A stretch of 64,000 bases of DNA from IMG/VR virus record IMGVR_UViG_3300029023_000077; one strand, written 5' to 3'. The notes beneath the pieces are model-generated. The model was not told the DNA's origin. It searched no databases and saw nothing but the letters and a program-made list of their open reading frames with translations. Positions 3,900 to 42,161 of this stretch are shown in pieces. The position numbers and the translations under genes were made by a program. Within the stretch, counting starts at the first letter, position 1. Every line of letters starts with the position of its first letter. The DNA is from a virus.

Positions 3900-4520
3900 A
3901 TGGGGATATGCCCGTTATGCGGTTCAAAATTGAATAGTAAGAATATGTGTACGAATTTTACAGCATGCTCCTATGTGGGCACTAATAGTTTTGATTTGTA
4001 TTCGTTAAAAGATGGGGTTACAGACGAACTTCGGAATAATCTGGTGATTGTTGACCAGACAGTGGCTACAATGGATTTGCCTGCTACACCAGAATTTTTT
4101 ATTTTAGGCGGAGCAGCATTAGTATTTCATGGATTGACAGATCGCCCTACTATGGATATTGACACAGCCAACAGAATAGACGATAATCTACGTGAGGTTA
4201 TTGATGTATTTGTTAGTGATCAGGCAAGTGAGGTTACTCAGCTTGGAAAAGGGTATCAGTGCAGAGCAGTGCCATATATGGAGGAGTTAAGCAACATTAA
4301 GGTGTATCTGCTATCACAGGAAGACCTGATTATAACGAAGGTAATCAGTAATCGGAAAAAGGATATTGGGGATTTGTTGAAAACCAATATCTTGACAAAA
4401 CATAATGTACAGAAGGCGGTAAGTGTCCTTCAGGCAGAGTATCCTGCAGATGCAGCTAAAAGGTATTCTGCTTATATAAAGCATTTGTTAGCTCGAAAGG
4501 AGAACGCAGATTTTGAATAG
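3900..4520 (+). CDS. Pol-beta superfamily nucleotidyltransferase with N-terminal zinc ribbon
   Basis: CPLCGSK...C..C ribbon; ILGGAALVFHGLTDRPTMDIDT = GG-x14-DID NTase motif (AbiEii/Lnu-like). Confidence 0.5.
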   Translation: MGICPLCGSKLNSKNMCTNFTACSYVGTNSFDLYSLKDGVTDELRNNLVIVDQTVATMDLPATPEFFILGGAALVFHGLTDRPTMDIDTANRIDDNLREVIDVFVSDQASEVTQLGKGYQCRAVPYMEELSNIKVYLLSQEDLIITKVISNRKKDIGDLLKTNILTKHNVQKAVSVLQAEYPADAAKRYSAYIKHLLARKENADFE

Positions 4521-4905
4521 TAGGTTGGAATTTCCAGATATGTTGAAAAGGGTGTATGCTTATCGTAAAGAACGGTGTGATGGGGCTTGGAATATTGATA
4601 ATACTGAACAACTCGAAAAACTGTTAGATGATAGTGAACGTGAGTTTTACTTCTTTTTGACATATGCCTACATGTCAAATTTAGATTTAACGGGTATCAT
4701 TACAAATGAAAGTTTACCTATTAGATTGGCGGTTGCTATTTATACCAGCCAAGCTAAGGAGCAAGGGTATGGCTCTATTTGTGAGTACTTGAATCAGTTT
4801 ATAGTAGCAGATGAATCAGTTGTTCAGGCTAAAAAGGTAATCCATGAGATTACTATGGCTAAGCAGCGTGAGAGGATAGAAAATGACAGAAAATTACTGG
4901 ACTAA
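4513..4905 (+). CDS. hypothetical protein
   Basis: 130-aa ORF, overlaps neighbours by a few nt. Confidence 0.45.
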   Translation: MNSRLEFPDMLKRVYAYRKERCDGAWNIDNTEQLEKLLDDSEREFYFFLTYAYMSNLDLTGIITNESLPIRLAVAIYTSQAKEQGYGSICEYLNQFIVADESVVQAKKVIHEITMAKQRERIENDRKLLD

Positions 4906-5971
4906 CCTTTTGTTCGCAGGTGATTTGCACAAGAGGCATAAAGACATATCAACCATCGAAGGGTATGTGAAGTGTACGCATGCGGTACAGGCTCAGTTAG
5001 AACGTGTAATTCAAGATCGGCATGTTGATTACTTTATAAGTCTCGGTGATTGGTATGATAAAGGGTATGCTGCTGACATATCAGCTGCATTATCTGACTG
5101 TGATGCTGATATTCAGATGTCTAAGGTCTTGAATGGTAACTTCTATGGATTGATTGGAAACCATATACGATTGAGTATGGATTCTAATCCGGAGTTGCAC
5201 TTAATTCAACCGCATGCCTATTTGAGAAGCAGGCAGCCTGTTACACGCAAGGATCAAATCATACACACACCTGGAATGTTAAGGATAAATGACGTACAGA
5301 TATCATTCCAGCATTATGATATGGGTTTAAGTAGTGTGGCAGATTACAAGCCTAAGAGAGAATCTTGGGCAAAGTACCACATTGCATTATTCCATACACC
5401 ATTAGTTGTGCCGGGTTATAAGTTAATCGACACACAGTATGGTTACAATATCTCATCCAATAATGATATTGCTTATACATTGGAGAATGTAGATTTGGCA
5501 ATCTGTGGTGATATACATAAACCACTGGGACAATTTGATATTAACAAGCCAAATGGCACAAAGACTGTTATGATTGTGCCGGGCTCACTTACAAATACAG
5601 ACGCAGGTGATGCAAATCGCCATGCGTCTATTTCTATGCCTTTTATTCAGATAGGTCTTAATTCTGAAGTTAAGATTCAGTATATTCCGTTTGACTTGTT
5701 AACTAATACGGTGACGTTTAAAAAGAAGAATATTGAACAAGCACAGGACAAGATGAAAACGTTACGTGGTAAAAGTTTAGAGAATCTGTATAACCCTGAA
5801 GATGTTGTGGCGGCTCTAAGTCACAGAGAAGATACACTCTTATCACTAAATGCGTTTATGGAGTCTAAAGGGTACACTCAAACTGATAAACAGCTTATTC
5901 TGAGTGTAATGCAAAATCCAGAGGATATTTTAAACCTAGTGAAGATATGGCAGGGTGAGAAGATCGTATAG
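4883..5971 (+). CDS. calcineurin-like metallophosphoesterase, SbcD/Mre11-like nuclease
   Basis: Motifs GDLH, LGDWYDKG (GDxxD), IGNHI (GNH) in canonical order. Confidence 0.7.
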   Translation: MTENYWTNLLFAGDLHKRHKDISTIEGYVKCTHAVQAQLERVIQDRHVDYFISLGDWYDKGYAADISAALSDCDADIQMSKVLNGNFYGLIGNHIRLSMDSNPELHLIQPHAYLRSRQPVTRKDQIIHTPGMLRINDVQISFQHYDMGLSSVADYKPKRESWAKYHIALFHTPLVVPGYKLIDTQYGYNISSNNDIAYTLENVDLAICGDIHKPLGQFDINKPNGTKTVMIVPGSLTNTDAGDANRHASISMPFIQIGLNSEVKIQYIPFDLLTNTVTFKKKNIEQAQDKMKTLRGKSLENLYNPEDVVAALSHREDTLLSLNAFMESKGYTQTDKQLILSVMQNPEDILNLVKIWQGEKIV

Positions 5972-8642: not shown

Positions 8643-10781
8643 ATGAGTGATACAGAAAAGATTCTGGAGGGTATGGATGCTTCCTTGTTGGAAGTAATAA
8701 GGTCTATTGATGCAAGAACAAATAGCTACTCTACAAATGAGCAAGTTGCCTTTGCGTCGGATTTCAGAAAGCCGATGATTTCCTTCTCTAACCCAGGAAC
8801 AGGAAAGACACACAGTATTGTTCATGGTCTTATTGTTGCCCAAACTTACCATGGTATACCAGGAAGGCAGATTAATGCCATGTCGTTTACGGACGCAGCA
8901 ACTGCGGAATTAAGTATTAGATATAAGAAGGCATGTAAAAAGTGTGATATGACTCCTACAGTGCAATTTAATACATTCCATAAGATTTGCTGGAATATTG
9001 TTAGGGAGGCTTATCCTGACATGACTTTGACTGGAACTTTCATACGTGAAGAGGACTTGGAAATGTTACACGGAATTATGGAAGACAATGGTTATGTCGA
9101 AGATGATATGGCTCAGGTTAAAAGAATCTATGAGGCTATAGAGAAGTTAAATCACGCTCTAATATATGACCCGGATAATATCAGGGAATCATACACTTTC
9201 AATCAACTTGACTTGGATATGGATATATTCCAGGAGCTGCGTAAGGGGCTTTTTAGACAGAAACTGTTTGGAAGGAGCATATCAGTTGGTGATATTCCGC
9301 TGTATGCTCTTTTTGCTTTGTGCAAAAAACAGTTCATCGGCTCTAAATATAGGGGTATGTATAAAATCATGGTTGTTGATGAGTTTCAGGATATGACAAA
9401 GCTATATCTCGTTATCTTATCAATGATTAGTGACAATCTGATTGCCATTGGTGACATGAAACAGCAAATTTATGGTTACAATGGTGCGAGCCCCTACATT
9501 GCAGATTTATATAAGAAGATGTACCCGGATGCAAGAGAAGTACCGTTGACACAATCTTTCCGGTGTGGCAATGAGATTGCAGAATATGCGACCCGTATAC
9601 AGGAGCCTAATTATCCAGGTATTGTTCCATTCAAAGGAGTATCTGATGGTGCAGAGGTTATTATTAAGCCTGTATCTGAATTAAGTTTAGATGACATAGT
9701 GAAGAAAATAGCTGAGGATAACGTAAGTGCTTATACTACTGGGAAAAGATGGACTACAATGTTCTTATTTAGAAATAATTATTCCATCACACCTATCGCA
9801 GAGGCGTTGTACAAGGCTGGGGTAAAATTCCGTGTCAAGAATTTTGCCATGATTATGACAATGCCAATCTACAAAGAATTGTGCTATTATGCAGATATTG
9901 CTGAAAATCCTGAAGATATTGAGTGTCTGAAGTATATACCGTTCATCATGCCTCAGTTTGAAAAGTACAAAAAAGAGCCATGGCTCAATCCGGTGTATAA
10001 ATGTGCACAGGAGAAGCATGATAGAGGTGAGCATGTAAACTTCTTTGAACTACCAGTTAAGTATAATGAGGACAGCTTGAAGATCATTTCTGTTCTTAAA
10101 GGTGTAAATTCCCGTATGTTAGAGGGTTGTAAAGCAGACACTGTTTTCTCATTGCTTGAGCCCCTATATGATGAATATGTTATTAAGGGCAAATGGTATA
10201 CACTTCAAAAGCCTGTAGAATATTATACAGGCATGGTGCAGCCTATTGCAGAAAAGAAGACATATTCTGTTTTAAAATCTGAGGAAAGAGCAAAGCTTGC
10301 TTTTACAAATGATGCAATAAAATTGAATATGGGTGTTCGGTGTTATACTATGCACTCTGCTAAGGGTTTGGAGGCAGATGAAGTATTTATCATTGATGCT
10401 GATGATGGTACATTGCCTGCAACTAAGCGTGTAAATAAAATGGTAAGGTCAGGTTGTGCATTCGAAGCGGCAAAGACTGTGAGAGAAGACAGGAACCTAC
10501 TTTATGTCGCAATTACGAGGGCAAAGTCAAAAGTAACGATTACCTACAATGGGCAGATTACGCCATTACTTGGTAGTCCAATGTACAATGAGTTCTCTGA
10601 GTTGGATGAGGTATACACACAGGCACGTCAGGACTATGACGACATGAAATATTTTAAACAAATTACAAATATTCATGAACGCATAGAAAGATTAGATACT
10701 CCCGAGACATATATAAGTGAGGATGCAATTGGAGATTCAGATATTGGCGATAACTTTGGCAAAGGATTGGAGATGATTTAG
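8643..10781 (+). CDS. UvrD/PcrA/Rep-family SF1 DNA helicase
   Basis: Motif I NPGTGKTH, motif II VVDEFQDMT, FRCGNEI, motif V HSAKGLEADEV, motif VI LLYVAITRAKSKV; start ATG 8643 after RBS GGAGAGGAGAGG. Confidence 0.85.
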   Translation: MSDTEKILEGMDASLLEVIRSIDARTNSYSTNEQVAFASDFRKPMISFSNPGTGKTHSIVHGLIVAQTYHGIPGRQINAMSFTDAATAELSIRYKKACKKCDMTPTVQFNTFHKICWNIVREAYPDMTLTGTFIREEDLEMLHGIMEDNGYVEDDMAQVKRIYEAIEKLNHALIYDPDNIRESYTFNQLDLDMDIFQELRKGLFRQKLFGRSISVGDIPLYALFALCKKQFIGSKYRGMYKIMVVDEFQDMTKLYLVILSMISDNLIAIGDMKQQIYGYNGASPYIADLYKKMYPDAREVPLTQSFRCGNEIAEYATRIQEPNYPGIVPFKGVSDGAEVIIKPVSELSLDDIVKKIAEDNVSAYTTGKRWTTMFLFRNNYSITPIAEALYKAGVKFRVKNFAMIMTMPIYKELCYYADIAENPEDIECLKYIPFIMPQFEKYKKEPWLNPVYKCAQEKHDRGEHVNFFELPVKYNEDSLKIISVLKGVNSRMLEGCKADTVFSLLEPLYDEYVIKGKWYTLQKPVEYYTGMVQPIAEKKTYSVLKSEERAKLAFTNDAIKLNMGVRCYTMHSAKGLEADEVFIIDADDGTLPATKRVNKMVRSGCAFEAAKTVREDRNLLYVAITRAKSKVTITYNGQITPLLGSPMYNEFSELDEVYTQARQDYDDMKYFKQITNIHERIERLDTPETYISEDAIGDSDIGDNFGKGLEMI

Positions 10782-10782
10782 T

Positions 10783-11322
10783 TTGAGTGAAATTAGGACT
10801 ATTGCTGAGATAGAAAAAGACAATGAAAAGCTGTCTAAGATGTACGCTCAGAAGGTGGAAAAGAGTGCACGTTACACACATACTGTCATGGAAGATGAAG
10901 GTTGGATAATAGATCCTGAAGTTGCAAAACAGGTTCTAAAATCCATAAAGCCAGAATATTCGCAGATTGAATGTAAACGCTATTATTTTATCAATGATAA
11001 GTATGATGCCGCTATTGTTGGTGTGGACTCAAAGAATATTGGATTATTTACGGCTGATATACCAAAAGAGGTGGCAGTTGCAGTAGACGATCCATACACC
11101 TTAAAGGAAACTTTGAAAACTTTTGAGACAGCGAGCAGCAGTATCAAACGCATCAGGATTATTGGTAATACTGTGCTGATTATTATATTTGCTGCTATCA
11201 CGTCAGCTGTTTTTCTTTTCGTCGGTCGTACCAAAATTGCGCTGTATGCACTGATTGGATCGGCAGTTGCTGGACTGATTGTATCTTTAATAAATGTAGG
11301 AGGTTCTAAAGATGGGGTTTAG
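10783..11322 (+). CDS. hypothetical protein with C-terminal transmembrane helices
   Basis: 179-aa ORF (TTG start); hydrophobic C-terminus VLIIIFAAITSAVFLFV. Confidence 0.45.
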   Translation: MSEIRTIAEIEKDNEKLSKMYAQKVEKSARYTHTVMEDEGWIIDPEVAKQVLKSIKPEYSQIECKRYYFINDKYDAAIVGVDSKNIGLFTADIPKEVAVAVDDPYTLKETLKTFETASSSIKRIRIIGNTVLIIIFAAITSAVFLFVGRTKIALYALIGSAVAGLIVSLINVGGSKDGV

Positions 11323-12485: not shown

Positions 12486-12689
12486 ATGGTTATTAATATT
12501 AGTCAGATTATAAAATTTGCGTTGATTTTAGTTGCACTTTTTGTTGTGGGCTACATCTTTGTTGTAGGCTTTAAGGGGAACTCTGAGGAGCATGGTGTTA
12601 CCTCAGAAAAATCGTCAAAGAAAGAGTCAAAGAAAGCATCAGGTGCATCAACTTCCACTGCTAGCGAGACAACAGAGAAGAAAGGTTAA
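12486..12689 (+). CDS. small membrane protein
   Basis: 67 aa, one TM helix then S/T/K-rich tail. Confidence 0.45.
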   Translation: MVINISQIIKFALILVALFVVGYIFVVGFKGNSEEHGVTSEKSSKKESKKASGASTSTASETTEKKG

Positions 12690-13699: not shown

Positions 13700-14197
13700 A
13701 TGGATTTGAAAGCTAAAAGTAGGGAGATTTCGGAAAGTCTTGTAAAGCTCAAAGAAGAACTTCATCAGACAAAAGAAACTATTCAGCAAGAGATGGAAAT
13801 GAACCTGCATGAGTTAAAGGACGCATCCAGTAAAGGTGACCGTTCTGAGAATGCAGCATTTACAGCAGCAACAGAGAAAGCGCAGGATCTTACTATCCAG
13901 CTTGCTAATGTTGAAAAACTGTTAAATGACATTGAGAATATGAAGAAGGAAGAGAAGTACCGAAACATTGGTATGGTTGTTTACTATACAACTGTATTAC
14001 TTTATGTTCCGGCTAAGAATAGGAGATTTGTATTGAAGTTGTACCCTAATGGTGTATCTGATATTGGCAAAGGCATTCTTGCACGTAACTGTGCAGTTGG
14101 TAAAGCTATATGGCAGAAACATAAAGGTGATGAGGTTTTTGTTATTGATAAGTGTACAGGCGAAGACCTGAAATATATTATTGAGGACTTTTATTAA
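13700..14197 (+). CDS. GreA/GreB-like transcript cleavage factor
   Basis: GDRSENAAFTAATE matches GreA tip GDLKENAEYHAARE (catalytic D/E kept); C-terminal SDIGKGILARNCAVGK...GDEVFVIDKCTGED matches the GreA FKBP-like domain. Confidence 0.6.
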   Translation: MDLKAKSREISESLVKLKEELHQTKETIQQEMEMNLHELKDASSKGDRSENAAFTAATEKAQDLTIQLANVEKLLNDIENMKKEEKYRNIGMVVYYTTVLLYVPAKNRRFVLKLYPNGVSDIGKGILARNCAVGKAIWQKHKGDEVFVIDKCTGEDLKYIIEDFY

Positions 14198-14217: not shown

Positions 14218-16260
14218 ATGATTGAATGTACGAAAGCGATTGATGGGTTAGTAAGTGCAGCTTTTGGGAAGAATATGGTGACTATCTCTGATTTGAAGAA
14301 GATGATGGACAGATTTGCACTTGATCCTAAGGTATCAGAAGTAGCCAGAGAAGCATTCATTGTCAGTGATGTTGACCTGAACAGACGCATGCTCAAGGAG
14401 TTTGAAAAGAAAGCAGCGGCTAAGCATGAAGAGGTTGTCATTATTTTTGTAGCAAAGAAAGGTCCTGCACCATTCAAAGAAATGGCAGGTGTTAATGCTA
14501 TTTTAGAAAAACCGACACCAGAAGATTTGAGTAAAACAACATTCGGTATTATCGAGAGCATTACACAGAAGAATGGCGTTGTACCTATTACTGGTGTAAC
14601 AGATAGCGCAAAAGATTTTGTGAGACAGGAAGAACCAGTTGATCTTGATGTACTTACAGATGAATTTGGTAACCCACTGGAATTTGACCTTAACCGGGTC
14701 GTTGAGGACGAGAAGCCACAGGAAGATACAGCACCGATTGACGTTCCTGTTCCTACTTTGGAGGAGCAGCCAGTTCAGGAAGAGCCGCCAGTCCAGTTTG
14801 ATAAGCCTGAGGATCTTGTTGACCGTATCAAGATGTGCGATAAAGTTAAGGACATTAATATCTTGACACGTGAGCTGACAGCTACAGCTGTCATTAAGGA
14901 GATGATCAAGTCTTCAGCAGACTACACAGGAATTGAAGAACGTTTGAAAGGGCTTAATGAGAAGATTCAAGCAGTATATCTTGATACAACAATTCCTGAG
15001 CAGGATAAGTTGGATAAGGTTCGTGCTCTACTCTATGATAAAGGTTATTACAGAACAAAGACTAACACTATTATTGAGCAGCGTGTAGAAGAGCTTATCA
15101 AGACTATTACTGACCGGACAAGAGAATGCTTGGATAAGCGATGCCAGGAATTAGAGAGGGCAATCGTTAATTATTCATCAGGAGTAAAAGCTCCTTTGGA
15201 TACTGCCAGGGTGTCTAGCCTGATTGATGATCGTGCAAACATTCTTCTGGAAATTACAGCTTTGCGTGAAGAAGTGCAGAATATCTATCTTAAGGTAAAC
15301 AAGTTTGCAGGTGATGCTACTGCTAATATTCTTGAAGACAGTGTGGTTCGCACAGGAAGCCCATTAATTGATGCTCGTTTAAGGTTAGCTGGAGATACTA
15401 CAGTACCTGAGCAGACAACAGAAATCATTGAGAAGATTTTAGAACTGTCAAGTACTAAGTCTGAGGAGTTTAAGGAAGCAAATAGAAAATTAATCATTCT
15501 TACACAGAAGTTGCAGACTGTTATGAATTTAGACAAAGATTTGATTGACGCCCTTACGCAGGCTGTTGAGCTTCTGCAGAGTAACAATATTGAGGATCGT
15601 ATCGTACAGGAGACACTGCTAAAGAAGTCACTTAGGTTCTTTGTGGCAAAAGAAGGCAGTGGAAGGACTGTTATCCCATACATTTGCTCTAAGTTGAAGT
15701 CCAGGACAAACTGTAATGTGCTTTATGTGGATATCGCAGGTGATTCTAAGCTCGCAGATTATACAGAGAGTTACATGAGTCTGGATGATTGGTTAGGTAA
15801 TCAGTATCAGGAGCAGTTCTGTGCAGTAGTTGGTACAATCTCAAATACGCCAGAGGCAGCACAGCGTTTGCTTGTTGCCTTAACAAAGGCAGCTGACTAC
15901 TATCGTGTAATTAATGTTGTAATGAGTCCTGAACAGAAAGAGATTTTTGACATTCTTGTTCCAGATACGGTATGTGTTAATTATATCGTTGACCCTACAT
16001 CACAGTCACTTGATTTCTTTAAGGGCTATATCAAGGAGACTAAATGTGAAAATGTGGCTCAGCGTGTAATTATTAACAAGTGTATCCCTAGTACGACTAG
16101 TATGATTCTTGAGAAGCTGGATCTTATCATGAATGGAGACGTACATGTCGTTACAGTACCGTATGAGCCTCTGATTACGGAATGTAGTCTGCGTGGTGTT
16201 AAGCCATATGAGTTGCAGGTCGTTACAGAAGCATTCAGAGAGGTGTGCAAAGTATGCTAA
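14218..16260 (+). CDS. large hypothetical protein with acidic, proline-rich linker
   Basis: 680-aa ORF; EEQPVQEEPPVQ low-complexity segment; RBS AAGAAAGAGAGG. Confidence 0.55.
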   Translation: MIECTKAIDGLVSAAFGKNMVTISDLKKMMDRFALDPKVSEVAREAFIVSDVDLNRRMLKEFEKKAAAKHEEVVIIFVAKKGPAPFKEMAGVNAILEKPTPEDLSKTTFGIIESITQKNGVVPITGVTDSAKDFVRQEEPVDLDVLTDEFGNPLEFDLNRVVEDEKPQEDTAPIDVPVPTLEEQPVQEEPPVQFDKPEDLVDRIKMCDKVKDINILTRELTATAVIKEMIKSSADYTGIEERLKGLNEKIQAVYLDTTIPEQDKLDKVRALLYDKGYYRTKTNTIIEQRVEELIKTITDRTRECLDKRCQELERAIVNYSSGVKAPLDTARVSSLIDDRANILLEITALREEVQNIYLKVNKFAGDATANILEDSVVRTGSPLIDARLRLAGDTTVPEQTTEIIEKILELSSTKSEEFKEANRKLIILTQKLQTVMNLDKDLIDALTQAVELLQSNNIEDRIVQETLLKKSLRFFVAKEGSGRTVIPYICSKLKSRTNCNVLYVDIAGDSKLADYTESYMSLDDWLGNQYQEQFCAVVGTISNTPEAAQRLLVALTKAADYYRVINVVMSPEQKEIFDILVPDTVCVNYIVDPTSQSLDFFKGYIKETKCENVAQRVIINKCIPSTTSMILEKLDLIMNGDVHVVTVPYEPLITECSLRGVKPYELQVVTEAFREVCKVC

Positions 16261-17648
16261 ATCTTGATGGTTATTTGGATTGTAATAAAGTCCTAGACAT
16301 CAATAGGTATACGAGTCTTAGATTTGCAGATTCACGTGTATTTAAAACGCCAGAGGCATTGTCTTTATATGAGCAGAATTACATGCTTGCATCGGATATT
16401 AAAAAATTGTGTGAGAAAGAATATGGTCTTGAGCTGTTTGAGCCAAGACCATCTTTTATACCAGATGATATCATAAATCATTACAACGGTTCAGGTTATG
16501 TACCTATAAAGTATGAACCTATGAAGAATATCTTGTTGTTGATGTATCTGCCTGAAGTAAAAACATTAGAAAGTCATTACCCTAATGTGCATATTGAGAC
16601 TAAGCCAACAACCATATATTACTATATGAAATATTATCAGAAGTATTATGGTGTTCACAGATCTCTGCGGGATATTCCAGCTAAGATGTTATTTGATTTT
16701 GTTGTAAAAGAAGCTATTGAGAAAGATGCTGCAGATATTACGATTTCAAATACTGGTAAAGCCACAGTTGTATATTACAATATACGCAAGCGGAAGGTAT
16801 GGTCAAACTATTGCTTTAGCCAAGAAATCATGGGTGACATTATAAAGTTTATCACTATAAGCTCACCATTAGACAGAGGGTCTCGTAAAGCTAAGGCTTT
16901 AGATATCGATTTAAATGAAAATTACCGTGGCAGAGTCATGATAAATCAATCATTTAAAGGCATGACTATTACAATTCGTGTTTTACCAAACGCAGCATTC
17001 TCTACTGATATAACAGAGTTAAATTTGACAAAAGAAGCCGAAGAGTGGATGTTGGATAATATTCTTGATATGGAGAAAGGGCTTCGCTTGATTGTAGGTG
17101 AGACAATGTCCGGGAAAAATACAGATGCTTTGTCCCTGTTACAGCGATTAGTAGAGACAGACAGGTATAAGATAGTGTCCGTAGAGATACCAGTGGAGCA
17201 AGAATTGCCTGGTGTTGAACAAATTAATTGTGATACGCCGGACGATTACTCAAACAACATAAAATCTTTAATCAGAGTGAATCCAGACTTTGTTTACATT
17301 ACAGAGATGCAGGATGCTACTGCATTAGACACTATTAAGATAACTAACACAGGTAAATGTGTTTTATCAACAGTACATGCAAACTCTGTCGGGGATACTA
17401 TCGTGAGGCTGATGGATATGACAGGTTTGCCTCAGGATAGAATTGTACAAACTTTGCATTCTGTAGTGTATCAGGAACTCGTAAGAGATGACTCTAAGGA
17501 TTTTGTATATCCAAGATGCCGGTATGTTCGTTTCACGCCTGAGTTGAAGTACCAGCTTTATGGGAAACCACTAGGTGTGATGTTAAAGATTATTCAGGAT
17601 TATGAGGAGGGGGATGTATGGACATCTATTCAGCATTTGGCACAATAG
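16245..17648 (+). CDS. GspE/PilT/VirB11-family traffic ATPase
   Basis: Walker A GETMSGKNT; Asp/His boxes RVNPDFVYITEMQDATA ... TGKCVLSTVHANSVGDTIVRLMDM as in PilT/VirB11. Confidence 0.65.
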   Translation: MQSMLNLDGYLDCNKVLDINRYTSLRFADSRVFKTPEALSLYEQNYMLASDIKKLCEKEYGLELFEPRPSFIPDDIINHYNGSGYVPIKYEPMKNILLLMYLPEVKTLESHYPNVHIETKPTTIYYYMKYYQKYYGVHRSLRDIPAKMLFDFVVKEAIEKDAADITISNTGKATVVYYNIRKRKVWSNYCFSQEIMGDIIKFITISSPLDRGSRKAKALDIDLNENYRGRVMINQSFKGMTITIRVLPNAAFSTDITELNLTKEAEEWMLDNILDMEKGLRLIVGETMSGKNTDALSLLQRLVETDRYKIVSVEIPVEQELPGVEQINCDTPDDYSNNIKSLIRVNPDFVYITEMQDATALDTIKITNTGKCVLSTVHANSVGDTIVRLMDMTGLPQDRIVQTLHSVVYQELVRDDSKDFVYPRCRYVRFTPELKYQLYGKPLGVMLKIIQDYEEGDVWTSIQHLAQ

Positions 17649-17887
17649 ACAGATCTGTTTTACAGGTTGTTAAGTCATTAATATCATTGGAGCCAGTAAA
17701 AGAGGAAGAGCAAGTAGATATGATCCGTGTTACCGAAAGTCCTCTTGTCCTTACAAAAGACATTATGGTGACAGGAAAAGTTGTGACAGCGCACAACCTG
17801 CACCAGTATAAGAACAATTTCTATAAGTTAAAAGTGACTGAGAATATTGAATGTCTGCTTGATGACTTATTAGAAATTGATGAGTAA
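17618..17887 (+). CDS. hypothetical protein
   Basis: 89-aa ORF. Confidence 0.35.
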   Translation: MDIYSAFGTIDRSVLQVVKSLISLEPVKEEEQVDMIRVTESPLVLTKDIMVTGKVVTAHNLHQYKNNFYKLKVTENIECLLDDLLEIDE

Positions 17888-18497
17888 TGGAGGTTGTATG
17901 TTAGAATTTGTTGCAATTGACTCACATAACCAGGTAGTGAACTTTACTCTTGAAGACTGTCCGGTCTTTCTAAATGAACGTCAGGTGATTTTAGCAAAGA
18001 CCGAAGGGTCTAACTTGATATATGCACACACAATAGTTAGACGTGATAAAACTGAGCGTGTAATGGAAGGAGATAAAGTTTTTATAGATAACCAGTTTGT
18101 AGGTATCGTTATCTATAATCAGGGGTTTTGCTTGCAAAAAAGTGATGGTACTTTAGAAAAATTTAAGAGATCCAGACATATATCAGTAAGAGTTGGTAAT
18201 TACTCTTCGATGCAAGAAGCTGTGCAAAGTTCAAATAGGCAGCCTATTATGTTTCGTTACAAAGAACGGACTTTCTCTATGAAAGCCCTGTTGTGTTATA
18301 ACAATGGTTTCGTAGTTGTCCATACATCAAATGACCACTATAAGAAAGTGTTGGCAAGTGATATCAGCTTAATGACAGGTGTAGGCAAATACTGTTTTGG
18401 CGATTTGACGGATGAAGGTGGCAGAATAGTCCTAAATCACTTACAGCCATGTGTTATGCTCAACAATAAAATCACAGAAATCAGCGAAGTAAATTAG
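17877..18497 (+). CDS. hypothetical protein
   Basis: 206-aa ORF. Confidence 0.45.
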   Translation: MMSNGGCMLEFVAIDSHNQVVNFTLEDCPVFLNERQVILAKTEGSNLIYAHTIVRRDKTERVMEGDKVFIDNQFVGIVIYNQGFCLQKSDGTLEKFKRSRHISVRVGNYSSMQEAVQSSNRQPIMFRYKERTFSMKALLCYNNGFVVVHTSNDHYKKVLASDISLMTGVGKYCFGDLTDEGGRIVLNHLQPCVMLNNKITEISEVN

Positions 18498-18510: not shown

Positions 18511-19665
18511 ATGAGAAATGAGATTCGTGGTATTGCGGTCGATAATGGTGGTAGTGAAGTAAGAGTGATGGATGGTATGAATCCTGTATTAGAAGACATG
18601 ATCAAGCTGAAGAATGATTTTGTCTCTATCAAGGAGAAGGATTTCAGGGTAAAAGAGGTTGCTGAACCTGCAAAGCTTTGTAGGGTATTGGAAGCGCCTA
18701 ATCCTGATTTCATGGGAATCTTTGCACAAGGTTTGACAGGTAAAGCATATGAAGGTCAGGTTGTGGCTATTTCCAGCCAGAAAGAAAAGACTGCTGACCC
18801 AAATTATTATAAGCAGTTTATATTTGCAGTGGCACAAGATGCATTGAAAGCTTGGATTCAGTCAGGTGGTTACTCTATGTACTCTAACGGTAACTCTGAA
18901 TCACAGCAGCACCCGGACATTGCTGATTCGTACGATTACTGTATTGTGGCTTGCATCCCTATTCAGGAGTTCAGCGGTGCAAAAGATTGTGCAGGATTGT
19001 TAAAAAATACGTTGCAGGGTCATTATGTTGTAGAGTTTCCATTGTTAGATAAGAAACCTGTGATCTCTTTCAACATTAAAGCTGAGTTTATGGGTGCAGC
19101 ACCTGAAGGTGGTATTGCTGTTAAGGCTCTGAAAGATCAGTTAGAAGAAGATGATATTTCCTTATTGGTTGATATGGGTTGTGTTACAACAGATATTGCA
19201 TTATTTCAAGGTACACATCTCTTAGGTAGGGTGTCATCTGTTAAATTTGCAAGTAGTACATTAGTTGCAAATATTCGTGCTGTATTGGCAGATGAAGGCT
19301 ATTTCGTGTCAGAAGCACAGGCTGAAAATGTACTGATTGCAAAACGTGTTAAGGATGGTCATGAGTCCGTAGATGTTTCTGCCATTGTAGAGGAGCAGAG
19401 CCGTAATTTTGTTCGTAACTACTTACAGAATGAGATAATTGGTATCCTTAATGCAAATCATGTTAATGCAAGACAGGTTCAGAACTTTGTGCCAATAGGT
19501 GCTTCTTTTAATAACCCGGAAAGTAATGCACTTATTTCAGAGATTGTTGCTTGTGCTAATTTACAGAAAGCAAAGCTCTGCATTCTTGCTGACGATTTAC
19601 GTTATGTGAATATCCAGCAGGCTAGTCGTTTTGTCAAGAAGTTTGTTAAGAAAGCAAAGGCGTGA
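18511..19665 (+). CDS. actin-like ATPase (ParM/Alp family)
   Basis: Phosphate-1 GIAVDNGGSEVRV and phosphate-2 LLVDMGCVTTDIALF motifs of actin-fold segregation ATPases. Confidence 0.55.
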   Translation: MRNEIRGIAVDNGGSEVRVMDGMNPVLEDMIKLKNDFVSIKEKDFRVKEVAEPAKLCRVLEAPNPDFMGIFAQGLTGKAYEGQVVAISSQKEKTADPNYYKQFIFAVAQDALKAWIQSGGYSMYSNGNSESQQHPDIADSYDYCIVACIPIQEFSGAKDCAGLLKNTLQGHYVVEFPLLDKKPVISFNIKAEFMGAAPEGGIAVKALKDQLEEDDISLLVDMGCVTTDIALFQGTHLLGRVSSVKFASSTLVANIRAVLADEGYFVSEAQAENVLIAKRVKDGHESVDVSAIVEEQSRNFVRNYLQNEIIGILNANHVNARQVQNFVPIGASFNNPESNALISEIVACANLQKAKLCILADDLRYVNIQQASRFVKKFVKKAKA

Positions 19666-19671
19666 GGTTAA

Positions 19672-20055
19672 GTGCAGGTTTTGATAGATATTCCACGATC
19701 GCTATCAAAGTATATTGAGTATGTACCAGAGGAAGACCTACCTGCTGTAATTTTGCAGGCACTTGAAGACAAGATTAAATCAAATGGTCTTATGCCGCCG
19801 GATACTACTCAAGACAAGTTAGATAGTATTCTGTCTATATTAGGTGATATAAAGAGTGGTGCTCCTGTAGTTGTACAGGAGCATTATTCTTTACCTCAAA
19901 ATACAGAAGTAGTTGAGATACCTGCTGTAGAAGAGAATGTAGTACCACAAAATATTGTAGAGTTCAAACAAACTTCATTCAGCAGTAATAATAATGATGA
20001 TGACGATGAAGATGATGATGATGATGATGATTTGTTTGATGACTTAATAAAATAG
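19672..20055 (+). CDS. small protein with poly-acidic C-terminal tail (possible ParR-like adaptor)
   Basis: GTG start; NNNDDDDEDDDDDDDLFDDLIK tail; lies immediately 3' of the ParM-like gene. Confidence 0.4.
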   Translation: MQVLIDIPRSLSKYIEYVPEEDLPAVILQALEDKIKSNGLMPPDTTQDKLDSILSILGDIKSGAPVVVQEHYSLPQNTEVVEIPAVEENVVPQNIVEFKQTSFSSNNNDDDDEDDDDDDDLFDDLIK

Positions 20056-24290: not shown

Positions 24291-24372
24291 AATCAGGGTA
24301 GGGGTGCTTAACCGGCGCCCCACCAGTGTATGTTTTTAGAATTGTGTAAAAGGTAGGATTTTCCTATGGGTG

Positions 24373-24406
24373 CAAGGCACCATATCATACTAGATATGGT
24401 GCCTTG
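24373..24406 (+). terminator. 13-bp perfect hairpin inside the structured intergenic region
   Basis: CAAGGCACCATAT-catactag-ATATGGTGCCTTG followed by TTATAAAG. Confidence 0.45.
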
Positions 24407-24635
24407 TTATAAAGTGGCGTGAGCTGCTATATTGTAAGTTCGCTTGCAATAGCTTATTTACAATATTTATTTCGCTGAAGAAGCAGTCTCACAAAGTACA
24501 AATGTACGCACGCCACCCTGGAGACTGCCATATGCAGATTAAGGTCTGCATAGCACAATAATCACTCAGGGCTTAACTCGCTAAGCCCTACAACAGTAGT
24601 TCGCTGCTGTTGGCATAGAAACTGTTATCCAGATA

Positions 24636-27161: not shown

Positions 27162-27524
27162 ATGATATATACAAGCTATTACAAAAATGTTGCAGATGTC
27201 GGTCCTGCCTATACGTTGATACAAGTATCTAACTCAAAACCTAAATGGTTTCCTTGGGGTGTATGGCCTTTGCCAGAAGTGTATCCTGATTTTGAGAATG
27301 TTAAGGCTTTGAAAGATGGGGTAATGTCAGAAGATCGCTTTTCTCAGTTATATAGAGAGAAACTAGCTAAGTTAGATAGAACTGTCATTCTTAACAAGAT
27401 TAATGAGATTGTATCTTTGGGCGATGATAAGGATGCTATGCTGTTATGCTGGGAAAGCTCTGATAAGTTCTGTCATAGACATATATTAGCAGAGTGGTTA
27501 GGTAATAATATTCAGGAATGGTGA
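27162..27524 (+). CDS. hypothetical protein
   Basis: 120-aa ORF. Confidence 0.45.
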   Translation: MIYTSYYKNVADVGPAYTLIQVSNSKPKWFPWGVWPLPEVYPDFENVKALKDGVMSEDRFSQLYREKLAKLDRTVILNKINEIVSLGDDKDAMLLCWESSDKFCHRHILAEWLGNNIQEW

Positions 27525-33746: not shown

Positions 33747-33968
33747 ATGTTCTTAGAAAATATTGACTCTCACACACTATTTATAATTGGGATAGCAATT
33801 GCTGTCTTAGTCATTGCAAAAATGATAGGCAAGGCGGTGAAGTTATGCGTAGCTTTAGTCATTGTGATTATAGTGCTTAGCTTTGCCGGTGTATTTGGGT
33901 CAGATGGGTTATTTAGTTCAAACATACCTGACACATATTATTGTCTTAATACAGGAGGTTATAGATGA
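33747..33968 (+). CDS. small two-TM membrane protein
   Basis: 73 aa with two hydrophobic helices. Confidence 0.45.
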   Translation: MFLENIDSHTLFIIGIAIAVLVIAKMIGKAVKLCVALVIVIIVLSFAGVFGSDGLFSSNIPDTYYCLNTGGYR

Positions 33969-34615
33969 ATCTTTGTGATTTGAAGATTGGTGATGCTATA
34001 ACAGTAAAAGCTTCACATGGTTTGGACTGTATTGAGTTCCAATCTACAATTGCAGGCAGTGTGAATGGTATAGCTGTAATGGATCCAGTTATCAGCTCGT
34101 CAAAGCTGGTAAATTTTGTATCAGATTTTGTTAAGACAGATATCCTGTATGAAGCTAGTAATAGTGCTACTTACATATTTACGAATGTACATATTCTTAA
34201 TGAAAAGGATATGAATGGTAAGTTAATGTCCTTTATCCATTGTAGGGATGAGGGTATGCTCTTAAATAGACGAGAGACTAAACGTTTTGTTGTAAATGAA
34301 GTTTGTGTTTTCTCACCTGGTCCACACAGGGCAGCTGTGAATGCTACGATTAGAGATATCAGCCTGGACGGTGTATGTATTGTAAGCACGCTAGTTGCAT
34401 CAGTTGGAAGTATCGGGAGATTCTCTTTTATTCCAGAGAAAGTAAAGGGATTAGGGAATATTTCAGAGGAGATAGAAATCTGTCGTGTTGTAAATGACCC
34501 AGAGAGTGATCGTGTTATGTGTGGTTGTAAATTTACATCACGTAACAATATGATAAATAAGTACATTGCAGCTTATCAGAGACAACTGCTGAAAGATAAG
34601 GCTAATCCTAGTTAA
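33965..34615 (+). CDS. PilZ-domain protein (putative c-di-GMP receptor)
   Basis: RRETKR (RxxxR) followed ~30 aa later by RDISLDGVCIV (D-x-S-x-x-G). Confidence 0.5.
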   Translation: MNLCDLKIGDAITVKASHGLDCIEFQSTIAGSVNGIAVMDPVISSSKLVNFVSDFVKTDILYEASNSATYIFTNVHILNEKDMNGKLMSFIHCRDEGMLLNRRETKRFVVNEVCVFSPGPHRAAVNATIRDISLDGVCIVSTLVASVGSIGRFSFIPEKVKGLGNISEEIEICRVVNDPESDRVMCGCKFTSRNNMINKYIAAYQRQLLKDKANPS

Positions 34616-41679: not shown

Positions 41680-42073
41680 AGGCCTGTAATGGTTTCGACA
41701 GGGTTATGAGGTTAAGTATTGCATCGGTCAGTCACCTATAACCAAAAAACAAAAAAATAGACGCTACAAGACGCCCTATGGCTATTGCTGCTTAATCTCG
41801 TGAGAGGTTGGTTGTTATAGTTCCGTTGCTACCGGGTAATGGGACGATGGTGATAGCTACCTCAACGTTTGCTACTATAAAGTAAATAGCTATGATGCTA
41901 GACTCCCAATCTTAGTATTGATATACAGCCTCGCAAGGAGGCTAGGTGCACAAACAATGGCCATGTAAGGTTTGTTAATTTTACCTGTATATGACTGTAA
42001 CGAAAATTAACTAAGATGTAGATATACTTATTAGTACTTTCTTTGGACACGGGTTCGATTCCCGTCAGGTCCA
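41680..42073 (+). ncRNA. ssrA: tmRNA (SsrA-like transfer-messenger RNA), tag ATRRPMAIAA
   Basis: 5' AGGCCUGUAAUGGUUUCGACAGGG parallels GGGGCUGAUUCUGGAUUCGACGGG. AAAAAAAUAGAC-GCU... parallels E. coli AAAAAAUAGUC-GCA at the resume codon. The tag frame GCU ACA AGA CGC CCU AUG GCU AUU GCU GCU UAA lies at 41763-41795. 3' end is T-arm ACGGG-UUCGAUU-CCCGU plus acceptor CAGGUCC-A pairing with 5' GGCCUG (G3:U). Length ~394 nt. Confidence 0.8.
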
Positions 42074-42161
42074 CTTAGATACTAGGAGAGGCTAAGACTC
42101 TAGTAGTGATGAGACCATCACACTAGTAGCTTTAAGTAAACAAAGCGAAGGAGATTTATTT

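Follow-up and report, generated by a model that had tools for sequence, protein, structure and literature searches.

A 64-kb stretch of DNA (the window) encodes a member of a distinct clade of PilT/VirB11 (T2SSE) superfamily motor ATPases whose non-canonical active site is fixed; it is coupled to a new family of probable scaffold proteins, with no platform found, in uncatalogued giant gut elements. Traffic-ATPase features had been recognized in the original prediction; to these we add the architecture of the partner protein, the fixed catalytic signature and a unit of at least three genes. The genes of the block are as follows.

13700-14197, + strand: GreA/GreB-like transcript-cleavage factor (PF03449, E 9e-7), heading the partner-ATPase block
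14218-16260, + strand: partner, a putative scaffold protein of 680 aa, pI 4.85, sharing 7 nt at its stop with the start of the ATPase gene
16254-17648, + strand: predicted motor ATPase of the PilT/VirB11 (T2SSE) superfamily, 464 aa (PF00437, PDB matches, hhalign)
17618-17887, + strand: 89-aa protein, the third chained gene, starting 31 nt inside the ATPase 3' end
17898-18497, + strand: ~199-aa protein directly after the ~100-aa gene, in every related locus

The predicted ATPase ORF at 16245-17648 exists on the + strand and opens at GTG 16245, but its true start is ATG 16254, because all relatives begin MLNL, a GAGAGG Shine-Dalgarno sequence lies upstream and databases call the 464-aa product. 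The overlap with the 3' end of the partner gene, correctly noticed before, is therefore 7 nt (ATGCTAA) rather than 16. The protein matches PF00437 (T2SSE) with E 5.6e-36 and 124.4 bits (cutoff 24.9) over residues 147-415; the best match did not fall in a non-T2SSE P-loop family, the outcome set in advance as fatal to the traffic-ATPase assignment, which holds. Solved GspE, PilB and PilT structures match it in a PDB sequence search (E 2e-18 to 1e-15), and hhalign against GspE references gives a probability of 99.85% (E 1.4e-30). With a family-specific N-terminal domain (residues 1-140) followed by N2 and C-terminal ATPase domains (about 141-412), it is a divergent superfamily member closest to the GspE/PilB/ComGA branch; clustering at 90% identity divides its clade into well over a thousand groups.

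The label "GspE/PilT/VirB11-type" is sound for the superfamily but does not narrow to any of the three, because subfamily scores are below cutoff, the Zn Cys4 motif is missing and no GSPII N1 domain is independently detectable. All NCBIfam models scored far under their cutoffs: ComGA 116 bits (cutoff 300), GspE 101.9 (630), PilB 96 (675.7), PilT/PilU TIGR01420 84.2 (319.1), TrbB 41.5 (305), TIGR02788 (testing TadA/CpaF and VirB11/TrbB) 39.8 (250) and TadA TIGR03819 32.6 (373), with TadA and VirB11 models (VirB11 ~20-40 bits) giving the lowest values among T2SSE subfamilies. Judged by these scores, the ATPase lies outside every named subfamily. PilT/PilU retraction ATPases are about 345-370 aa long, lack an N1 domain and carry a C-terminal AIRNLIRE motif; we rejected this identity on the sub-cutoff score, the 464-aa length with its extra N-terminal domain, and an alignment containing no AIRNLIRE-like motif. 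GspE references carry four invariant cysteines (C469, C472, C480 and C483), and in the family alignment no Cys is conserved after the His box. The 140-aa N-terminal domain found no Pfam or PDB sequence match, and hhalign with this domain alone scored 15.2 (E 0.14), which 3 of 20 shuffles equaled or exceeded. An N-terminal GSPII (N1) domain is a feature of GspE/PilB/ComGA assembly ATPases (PMC11656802). That the N1 domain used by PilB and GspE for docking on their machines was not detected in this ATPase is an observation against docking on a host machine.

We counted motif conservation in 120 ATPase relatives, down to 47% identity.

17097-17123, + strand: Walker A, GETMSGKNT, residues 282-290; G282, T284, G287, K288 and N289 identical in 120/120
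17175-17201, + strand: Asp box, VSVEIPVEQ, residues 308-316; E315 in 120/120, E311 in 117/120
17289-17315, + strand: Walker B with the catalytic Glu, FVYITEMQD, residues 346-354; E351 in 120/120, D354 in 118/120
17346-17384, + strand: His box, NTGKCVLSTVHAN, residues 365-377; N365, T366, G367, K368, T373, H375 and N377 in 120/120

The order of Walker A, Asp box and His box was predicted correctly, including LSTVHANS (residues 371-378 in the 464-aa numbering), but their form departs from the canonical one. Walker A of the family reads GxTxSGK-N, keeping Lys288 and placing Asn289 where Ser or Thr is usual; canonical GxxxxGK[S/T] was ruled out by the Asn present in every relative, against GSGK[ST]T in the references, and the ATPases of loci L006 and L007 (42-44% identity) likewise read GKN. 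The Asp box has no Asp, position 312 being M or I within a family signature of E-[MI]-P-V-E-Q (E311, P313, E315 and Q316 conserved), and the first His of the His box is replaced by the invariant Lys368 (TGK...H), the second, His375, being invariant as well. Two N2-domain arginines, R227 and R242 (Arg fingers), are identical in 120/120 relatives, and together with the Asp box, Walker B and His box they are all present and collinear with the T2SSE superfamily. The nucleotide site is complete but altered, in a form fixed across the family, and we argue that it works because K288, N289, E315, E351, K368, H375, R227 and R242 never vary among the 120. With Asn in place of Ser/Thr in Walker A, Mg2+ may be coordinated less strongly, which leaves motor activity a prediction; the invariant GK-N P-loop offers a natural experiment on Mg2+ coordination in such motors. 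Like GspE, PilB and ComGA, which give its best sequence matches, the ATPase has a similar length, an extra N-terminal domain before N2, collinear N2 and C-terminal domains and motifs in order; unlike them, it has neither the Zn tetracysteine nor an independently detectable GSPII N1, carries fixed Asn, Met/Ile and Lys in its catalytic motifs and has no adjacent platform gene.

The partner is acidic and contains a Pro/Glu-rich linker, as predicted. It had no match in Pfam, NCBIfam, PHROG or PADLOC, and a profile search of 1.84 billion proteins returned 172 representatives and nothing beyond its own family; this family is new and closed. Its predicted architecture is as follows.

14218-14571, + strand: CheY-like pseudo-receiver domain, residues 1-118 (AF2 and Foldseek)
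14572-14811, + strand: disordered acidic Pro-rich linker, residues 119-198 (pLDDT below 50)
14812-15612, + strand: long helices, a presumed coiled-coil stalk, residues 199-465 (AF2 model)
15613-16257, + strand: ParA/MinD-fold domain with degenerate catalytic residues, residues 466-680

The AF2 model of the first domain (pLDDT 88.6, pTM 0.83) matched the receiver domains of NtrC1, NtrX, KdpE and CpaE/TadZ in Foldseek (TM 0.56-0.66, probability 0.96-1.0, E at least 4e-3), suggesting an atypical receiver domain at the level of fold only, with no match below E 1e-3. D53 at the end of beta-3 and L96 and P99 in beta-5 are invariant, and the acidic pair after beta-1 is missing. The linker (pI 4.05, 22 D/E, 11 P) averages 23% identity across the family, and DSSP assigns helices to residues 234-255, 261-321, 329-376 and 398-455 of the AF2 model. 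The C-terminal part is predicted to be an atypical ParA/MinD-type domain, with FlhG, MinD and ParA closer as fold neighbors than TadZ (rank 18). Its P-loop is EGSGRT, and the family pattern, EGxG(R/K/L/G/S)T, leaves the Lys position variable; Asn566 is invariant at the Walker-B position, an equivalence taken from motif spacing rather than residue-level superposition. The domain therefore differs from FlhG/FleN, MinD and ParA/Soj in having EGxGRT for KGGxGK[ST] and Asn for the Walker-B-position Asp, as well as in its fusion to a receiver-like domain and coiled coil; on the missing deviant Walker A and the Asp-to-Asn change we rejected its membership of the ParA/MinD positioning ATPases, in which these features support a dimer cycle driven by ATP. 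No MinD-type amphipathic membrane helix was recognized in the partner, and no DNA-binding domain was detected in either the partner or the ATPase.

The closest architectural precedent is TadZ/CpaE with TadA/CpaF, where the gene for a receiver plus ParA/MinD protein likewise sits directly upstream of that for a PilT/VirB11-superfamily ATPase. The partner fold search recovered the receiver domains 4dad, 4n0p, 4myr and 4lda and full-length TadZ 3fkq, and by analogy the domain logic of the partner appears to be that of TadZ/CpaE. Unlike TadZ/CpaE, the partner carries an acidic linker (80 aa) and a coiled coil (~270 aa) between its two domains and shows no sequence-level relationship outside its 172-member family, and GspE/PilB/ComGA are closer to the ATPase than TadA is. 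The TadZ rank of only 18 for the C-terminal domain and the weak E-values of the receiver fold are observations against the analogy. Membership of the TadZ family itself was rejected, there being no Pfam/NCBIfam match and, in the window or flanks, no tad locus with TadB/C, Flp pilin, TadV and RcpA; adjacency to a T2SSE ATPase is the one feature shared with such a locus.

The anticipated coupling of the ATPase to the 680-aa protein was recovered across 11 loci (the window, L002-L007, L010-L012 and L018, down to 42% ATPase identity), 5 of which are near-identical, including copies L002-L005, leaving about 8 independent lineages. In 11/11 the partner gene, the ATPase gene and a gene of ~100 aa stand side by side, and the partner stop overlaps the ATPase start by 4-14 nt in 10/11. 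Every locus has a gene of ~92-104 aa that either overlaps the ATPase stop or directly adjoins it; in the window, the GGAGG Shine-Dalgarno sequence of the 89-aa gene is encoded by the conserved C-terminal EEGDVW codons of the ATPase. The ~199-aa protein is conserved by blastp in L005, L006 and L007, a gene of the same size is present in L010-L012 and L018, and Pfam and PDB searches with it gave no match. The "two-protein machine" proposed earlier is accordingly right in its coupling but too small in its gene count, which is at least three chained genes; the partner, the ATPase and the ~100-aa and ~200-aa genes together form what appears to be a translationally chained, vertically inherited core module of a large family of giant elements. 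The roles suggested earlier for the ATPase, DNA translocation, virion assembly or export of element proteins, are conjecture. Every locus examined has a GreA-like gene ahead of the partner gene (in the window its product aligns over its full length with E. coli GreA 1grj, E 0.0015), and the flanks are constant: UvrD and an Mre11-like phosphoesterase accompany GreA on one side, FEN and a clamp loader lie on the other, and upstream are genes for PolA, RNase H and a DnaG-like primase. In blastp comparisons the ATPase was 61% identical in L005 (neighbors 24-53%), 44% in L006 (23-38%) and 42% in L007 (23-36%); in each of these three loci no other protein compared from the replication block was as well conserved.

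Neither the 64-kb window nor the +-10 kb around related loci contains platform, pilin, peptidase or secretin genes, including the PilC/GspF-like polytopic partners whose search had been suggested, and TadB/C, Flp pilin, prepilin peptidase, secretin and other tad genes were likewise not found there. T4SS genes, such as those for a relaxase, VirB4 and VirD4, were not seen either. The earlier statement that no other secretion components lie nearby is correct for platform, pilin, peptidase and secretin genes, but it overlooked the TadZ/CpaE-like partner and a PilZ-domain gene with intact c-di-GMP motifs 16 kb downstream. In five control GspE loci, GspE was always beside GspF, GspD or pseudopilin genes, supporting the view that a traffic ATPase in a replication and repair module is unusual. 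The carriers are giant mobile elements of at least 350 kb from gut Clostridia (Lachnospiraceae/Oscillospiraceae); the inspection covered ~85 kb of such an element, so platform genes may sit elsewhere on it. To our knowledge, motors of the PilT/VirB11 family drive only pili, archaella, secretion systems and machines for DNA uptake, and their genes accompany those of the platforms.

Because platform and pilin genes were not found near the motor gene, the most likely reading, which we hold tentatively, is that the partner positions the motor and that the motor docks on a host platform for type IV filaments. Like TadZ/CpaE in relation to the motor of Tad pili, the partner would be a non-hydrolysing scaffold. 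Its coiled coil and ParA-like domain would mediate dimerisation, and the partner, anchored at a landmark in the cell (the membrane or a pole), would bring in the hexameric ATPase and hold it in place; the ATPase would plug into a host T4P, Tad or Com platform. During infection the element could thereby take charge of the pili, competence or secretion of its host, much as the GreA-like neighbor plausibly targets host RNA polymerase. The PilZ-domain protein on this element and two small membrane proteins conserved in the block are further observations in favor of this reading. TadZ localizes to the pole and is required for apparatus assembly, and ParA/MinD-family proteins that position pilus or secretion machines include TadZ/CpaE, BcsQ and VirC1 (PMC11407121). 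The phage inhibitors Tip, Aqs1 and Zip are a precedent for phage control of the host type IV pilus motor PilB (PMC11656802), although these are small peptides binding PilB or PilZ, whereas here a full-length motor homolog comes with a scaffold. If docking on host machinery is correct, mobile elements would have a new way to commandeer type IV filament systems, by a replacement motor and positioning factor instead of a small inhibitor.

A doubtful but possible alternative is an element-autonomous cytoplasmic motor, in which the scaffold would tether the hexameric ATPase to a replication/recombination factory or to element DNA, and the ATPase would act on DNA or protein, moving or remodelling it while the giant genome is replicated, segregated or packaged. 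Host-manipulation accessory genes usually evolve fast and are patchily distributed; an element-autonomous function fits better than such an accessory because the ATPase is a conserved core gene in a replication/recombination block across two host families. The module always lies inside that block, between UvrD/Mre11-like/GreA and FEN/clamp loader, its ATPase is the best conserved there, no platform or pilin genes were found, and DNA is a common matrix of ParA-family proteins (PMC11407121). In further support, no DnaB-type replicative helicase was seen in the ~85 kb inspected. Against this reading, that absence rests on partial sequence, the ParA-like domain has lost the catalytic residues for ParA-type dynamics, neither protein has a detected DNA-binding domain, and phage-like gene order reflects expression timing as much as function. 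We also know of no PilT/VirB11-family member that acts on DNA, which weighs against a cytoplasmic motor. That a platform-less PilB-like motor with a receiver/coiled-coil/pseudo-ParA scaffold would perform a core function of the replication block, in the cytoplasm and on element DNA or a replication compartment, we consider rather unlikely; if true, the superfamily would have its first role outside filaments and secretion, and a motor working alone would widen that superfamily's functional range.

It is less likely still that the motor belongs to an apparatus encoded by the element itself, a type IV filament, Tad-like or transfer system serving egress, adhesion or passage between cells, with the remaining genes (platform, pilins, peptidase) elsewhere. 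Only ~85 kb of at least 350 kb were inspected, the partner-ATPase pair resembles tadZ-tadA in domain logic and in the order of the genes, a gene for a c-di-GMP receptor with a PilZ domain lies 16 kb away, the 64-kb window holds no virion genes, and searches of IMG/VR, INPHARED and PLSDB did not find the family; against this, motors in all five control loci cluster with platform and pilins, of which none occurs within +-10 kb in 11 loci, TadA and VirB11 models score the ATPase worst among T2SSE subfamilies, and the two small membrane proteins conserved in the block have no prepilin signature. VirC1, a ParA-like protein, spatially couples the DNA substrate to the VirB/D4 type IV secretion system (PMC11407121), and here too a ParA/MinD-family protein would stand beside a PilT/VirB11-superfamily ATPase, as VirC1 does beside a machine that includes VirB11, but no T4SS genes were seen and VirB11 models match weakly.

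Ser/Thr-to-Asn at this P-loop position is a classic dominant-negative change in small GTPases. A catalytically crippled decoy, a nucleotide-locked mimic of host PilB/PilT that would poison motors or occupy the platform and so exclude superinfection by a dominant-negative mechanism, would agree with the invariant GKN and with phages disabling PilB through small proteins (PMC11656802), but it is highly improbable, since a mere decoy would need none of the invariant catalytic Glu351, two arginines, His375 and Asp-box glutamates, and neither its standing as the best-conserved core gene nor its need for a 680-aa scaffold would be expected.

T2SSE-like phage families in PHROGs (phrog_26606, phrog_19065) are annotated only as "unknown function". 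Docking of the motor on a host platform, our preferred reading, and its alternatives all concern a question that is experimentally approachable, because a relative is present in the cultured strain Pseudoflavonifractor capillosus ATCC 29799.

The open reading frame predicted at window positions 16245-17648 (+) is real, and its product is a T2SSE-family ATPase, as the original prediction of a GspE/PilT/VirB11-type motor had held. In a Pfam profile search, PF00437 (T2SSE) matched residues 147-415 with an E-value of 5.6e-36 (124 bits; cutoff, 24.9 bits) and was the sole family returned, ruling out SpoIIIAA and other named T2SSE-like families. The best solved-structure matches in the PDB were all of T2SSE type (GspE/EpsE, E 2e-18; PilB, 3e-17; PilF and PilT, ~1e-15), followed by stepwise weaker matches to DotB, BfpD, PilU, FlaI, and VirB11, so a non-T2SSE P-loop family as the closest match can be discarded. 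The predicted start at 16245 did not hold: every relative begins with MLNL, gene calls give 464 aa, and a GAGAGG Shine-Dalgarno lies upstream, placing the true start at ATG 16254. Every NCBIfam subfamily model that matched the ATPase scored far under its cutoff (bits/cutoff: ComGA 116/300, GspE 102/630, PilB 96/676, PilT 84/319, TraJ 71/368, VirB11 40/250, TadA-type 33/373), and the protein represents a separate clade, nearest to the GspE/PilB/ComGA branch. Each search for the family returned more than 500 clusters; among the 240 matches listed, all were 446-480 aa long, on contigs of up to 335 kb, and in gut metagenomes the family comprises well over 1,000 clusters at 90% identity.

Alignment of the best 120 ATPase relatives (47-83% identity to the window protein) revealed altered catalytic motifs that are fixed across the family. 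Walker A reads G-x-T-x-S-G-K-N (K288 and N289, each 120/120), the Asp box reads S-[IV]-E-[MI]-P-V-E-Q and holds no Asp (E315, 120/120), Walker B reads Y-[ILV]-T-E-x-x-D (E351, 120/120), and the His box reads N-T-G-K-x-V-x-S-T-x-H-A-N (K368 and H375, each 120/120); the N2-domain arginines R227 and R242 are both present in all 120 sequences, and GKN persists at 42-44% identity as well, in the two genomic relatives furthest removed. GspE references, by contrast, carry GSGK[ST]T and four invariant cysteines, which are missing from this family. Full conservation of a non-canonical site points to a working nucleotide pocket, probably with altered Mg2+ coordination, rather than to decay. Residues 1-140 form a family-specific domain without a match in Pfam or PDB sequence searches. 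A full-length profile-profile (hhalign) alignment extended into this region; the N-terminal region alone scored 15.2 (E 0.14), a value reached or beaten by 3 of 20 column shuffles. We do not claim a GSPII/T2SSE_N (N1) identity for it, as a likeness seen by eye was unsupported by Pfam, PDB, or shuffles.

To place the ATPase in its genomic setting, we examined 11 loci (the window and the related loci L002-L007, L010-L012, and L018), with ATPase identity down to 42%. Among their sources are a termite-gut MAG labelled Endomicrobium, the isolate Pseudoflavonifractor capillosus ATCC 29799, and MAGs of Lachnospiraceae; since L002-L005 represent a single lineage (P0016) in nearly identical copies, the set amounts to about eight independent lineages. 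The order of genes is constant: a Mre11-like phosphoesterase, UvrD, 4-5 small genes, a GreA-like factor, the partner protein (653-815 aa), and the ATPase, then a ~100-aa gene, a ~200-aa gene, an optional pair (an actin-like protein of ~350-400 aa and a ~110-127-aa gene), and a ~200-228-aa gene, and finally FEN, the clamp loader, and, in most loci, DUF488. The predicted coupling of the ATPase to its 680-aa partner was borne out, the two genes adjoining in all 11 loci, with an overlap of 4-14 nt in 10 and a 5-nt gap in one; in the window, the junction ...AGT-ATG-C-TAA makes the partner stop and the ATPase start overlap by 7 nt. The pair is a genuine, well-conserved feature and no artefact. The gene after the ATPase starts inside or at the ATPase stop, and its GGAGG Shine-Dalgarno lies in the codons of the conserved ATPase C terminus, E-[EG]-G-D-[VI]-W, so that at least three genes are translationally chained. 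This dual coding falls at 17604-17648 (+) in the window, where GAGGAGGGGGATGTATGG contains the ATPase EEGDVW codons together with the next gene's Shine-Dalgarno and start codon; conservation of EEGDVW may therefore partly reflect nucleotide-level constraint. Blastp comparison of three loci showed the ATPase to be better conserved than any of its neighbors in the block: 61% in L005 (neighbors 24-53%), 44% in L006 (23-38%), and 42% in L007 (23-36%). Within the first sizeable intergenic gap past the ATPase block (24291-24635), at 24373-24406, two perfectly matching 14-bp inverted arms enclose a 6-nt loop. This repeat may be a terminator or an operator at which the transcription unit ends; promoter and terminator scans gave counts no higher than shuffled expectation.

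The partner is acidic (pI 4.85) and carries an acidic, Pro-rich linker at residues 119-198 (pI 4.05, 22 D/E, 11 P), both as originally described. It has no match in Pfam, NCBIfam, PHROG, or PADLOC searches, and its HMM, run against 1.84 billion representative proteins, returned 172 matches only, nearly all full-length (640-820 aa), never reaching cellular ParA, MinD, or TadZ. AlphaFold models residues 1-118 as a CheY-like (beta-alpha)5 domain (pLDDT 88.6, pTM 0.83), residues 119-198 as disordered, residues 199-465 as long helices, and residues 466-680 as an alpha/beta domain (pLDDT 80-90). We class the N-terminal domain as a pseudo-receiver: an invariant Asp closes beta-3 and L-x-x-P lies at beta-5, but the acidic pair after beta-1 is missing. 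Its fold matches are the receiver domains of NtrC1, NtrX, and KdpE as well as isolated CpaE/TadZ receiver domains (4dad, 4n0p, 4myr, 4lda), at TM 0.56-0.66 and probability 0.96-1.0, none with E <1e-3. The ParA-like domain is the most conserved region of the partner (58% mean identity), and its catalytic residues are degenerate: the P-loop reads EGxGRT, with the Lys position occupied by R in 21/24, K in L006, L in L007, and elsewhere G/S, and the Walker-B position is an invariant Asn. From these residues, we read the domain as a putative non-hydrolysing scaffold.

This architecture resembles that of TadZ/CpaE, which likewise combines an atypical receiver with an atypical ParA/MinD domain and whose gene immediately precedes that of a T2SSE ATPase; polar localization is known for TadZ/CpaE, and assembly of the Tad apparatus depends on it (PMC11407121). 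We do not, however, assign the partner to the TadZ/CpaE family, with no sequence link and no further tad genes found. Its acidic linker and presumed 270-aa coiled coil are insertions relative to TadZ/CpaE, and other ParA/MinD proteins are structurally nearer to it. Together, the two genes represent a new PilT/VirB11-superfamily motor with a family-specific active site and a new family of candidate TadZ-like scaffolds.

No other secretion components accompany the pair, in agreement with the original prediction. We found no polytopic PilC/GspF-like proteins and no prepilin-type N-termini in the 64-kb window, and no platform, pilin, peptidase, or secretin families in a Pfam/PHROG sweep of 83 window ORFs or, by precomputed Pfam annotations, in the flanking 10 kb of related loci. 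By comparison, all five plasmid GspE genes used as controls lay beside GspF, GspD, or pseudopilin genes.

Window genes considered alongside the partner and ATPase
10783-11322 (+), tail-anchored membrane protein, 112-179 aa across loci, right after UvrD
12486-12689 (+), single-pass membrane protein, 53-87 aa across loci, with a Gly/Ser/Asn/Lys-rich tail
13700-14197 (+), GreA/GreB-like factor (PF03449; matches E. coli GreA 1grj over the full length, E 0.0015)
18511-19665 (+), actin-like protein (weak ParM/FtsA Pfam matches; phrog_691 'partition protein', E 1e-9)
19672-20055 (+), 127-aa protein with an RHH-like N terminus and a poly-Asp tail ending DDLFDDLIK
33965-34615 (+), PilZ-domain protein, 216 aa (PF07238, E 9.1e-8, above cutoff)

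Both small membrane proteins keep their position in the window and in 5/5 other loci checked and could serve as an anchor for the machine; the Gly-cleavage/Glu5 pattern is absent from both, so they are not pilin-like. The GreA-like factor, always directly upstream of the partner-ATPase pair, retains the GDxSENA catalytic coiled-coil tip (GDRSENAAF), and its presence implies that the element tunes a multisubunit RNA polymerase. The PilZ protein, 16 kb downstream of the ATPase, is probably an element-encoded c-di-GMP receptor, since both canonical c-di-GMP-binding motifs are intact (RRxxxR as RRETKR and DxSxxG as DISLDG). The actin-like and 127-aa proteins look like an optional ParM/ParR-type partition module; no centromere-like repeats were found near the actin-like gene. 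We rejected the actin-like protein as a PilM/GspL-type motor partner, as it is missing, along with the RHH-like gene, from L006, L007, L010, and L011.

We propose that the partner acts as a TadZ-like scaffold that would position the hexameric motor, and that the motor in turn may engage a type IV filament platform of the host. With no platform of its own encoded nearby, the motor would most likely work on that of the host, a reading we favor tentatively and with well under even confidence. The GreA-like factor is plausibly another protein directed at host machinery, and phages are known to target PilB, although with small peptides (PMC11656802). The core status of the ATPase and its replication context argue against host docking and for an element-autonomous cytoplasmic role, which we consider unlikely. 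Because our view covers ~85 kb of at least 350 kb, the motor might also belong to a self-encoded filament or transfer system with its other parts elsewhere on the element, which we judge improbable. A nucleotide-locked decoy is highly unlikely, given that the entire catalytic apparatus is conserved.

A contig of 350,828 bp (ENA ERZ27239532 k119_29866) encodes proteins identical to those of the window (e.g., 1682-2908 and 55280-56608); the window falls at roughly 117-181 kb of this contig, and the element measures at least 350 kb. Genes for PolA, RNase H, a NERD nuclease, an HD protein, and a DnaG-like primase lie upstream; the element's genes are all on one strand, with strong GC skew, and its proteins are mostly orphans. 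We found no close DNA relatives in phage, viral-contig, or plasmid collections, and the ATPase family was not found in IMG/VR (two pattern sets), INPHARED, or PLSDB (generic GspE or TraJ matches only). Matches in phages by tblastn reached at most 34% identity, and jumbo-phage reviews do not mention PilT-type ATPases. We refrain from labelling the element a phage, as the window has no capsid, terminase, portal, or tail PHROGs and the replication proteins reach a maximum of just 23-28% identity to anything in the INPHARED phage collection. It appears to represent an uncatalogued giant-element lineage of Lachnospiraceae and Oscillospiraceae, in which the motor sits in an orphan context, with no platform genes nearby. 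A relative of the whole block is present in a cultured type-collection strain, P. capillosus ATCC 29799 (L007; NZ_AAXG02000028.1, 282-304 kb of a 317-kb contig). YonO-like single-chain RNA polymerases have been noted in 'Bacteroides capillosus' and 'B. pectinophilus' (PMC5467207), and at loci L009 and L011, proteins of 1011-1032 aa flank the block.

Accessory domains and tmRNA in the window
3900-4520, DUF6036
4883-5971, Metallophos
27162-27524, DUF488
41680-42076 (+), full-length tmRNA (Rfam RF00023, 87.3 bits; ARAGORN tag peptide ATRRPMAIAA)
58840-60123, HipA_C
60165-61961, Metallophos

The window also encodes a microbial PARG, YpsA SLOG, DprA, an AbiEii-type nucleotidyltransferase, a HipA-like kinase, SPFH/Band 7, an HPr-like protein, and DUF4869. 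Judged by its predicted domains, this accessory repertoire is of a kind typical of conflict or host-takeover functions; PADLOC matches were marginal (E >1e-3), and we assign no known anti-phage defence system. A 142,853-bp Logan contig with the same ATPase ends about at the tmRNA (window position 16254 corresponds to position 10001 of locus L001), suggesting an assembly break at sequence shared with the host tmRNA.
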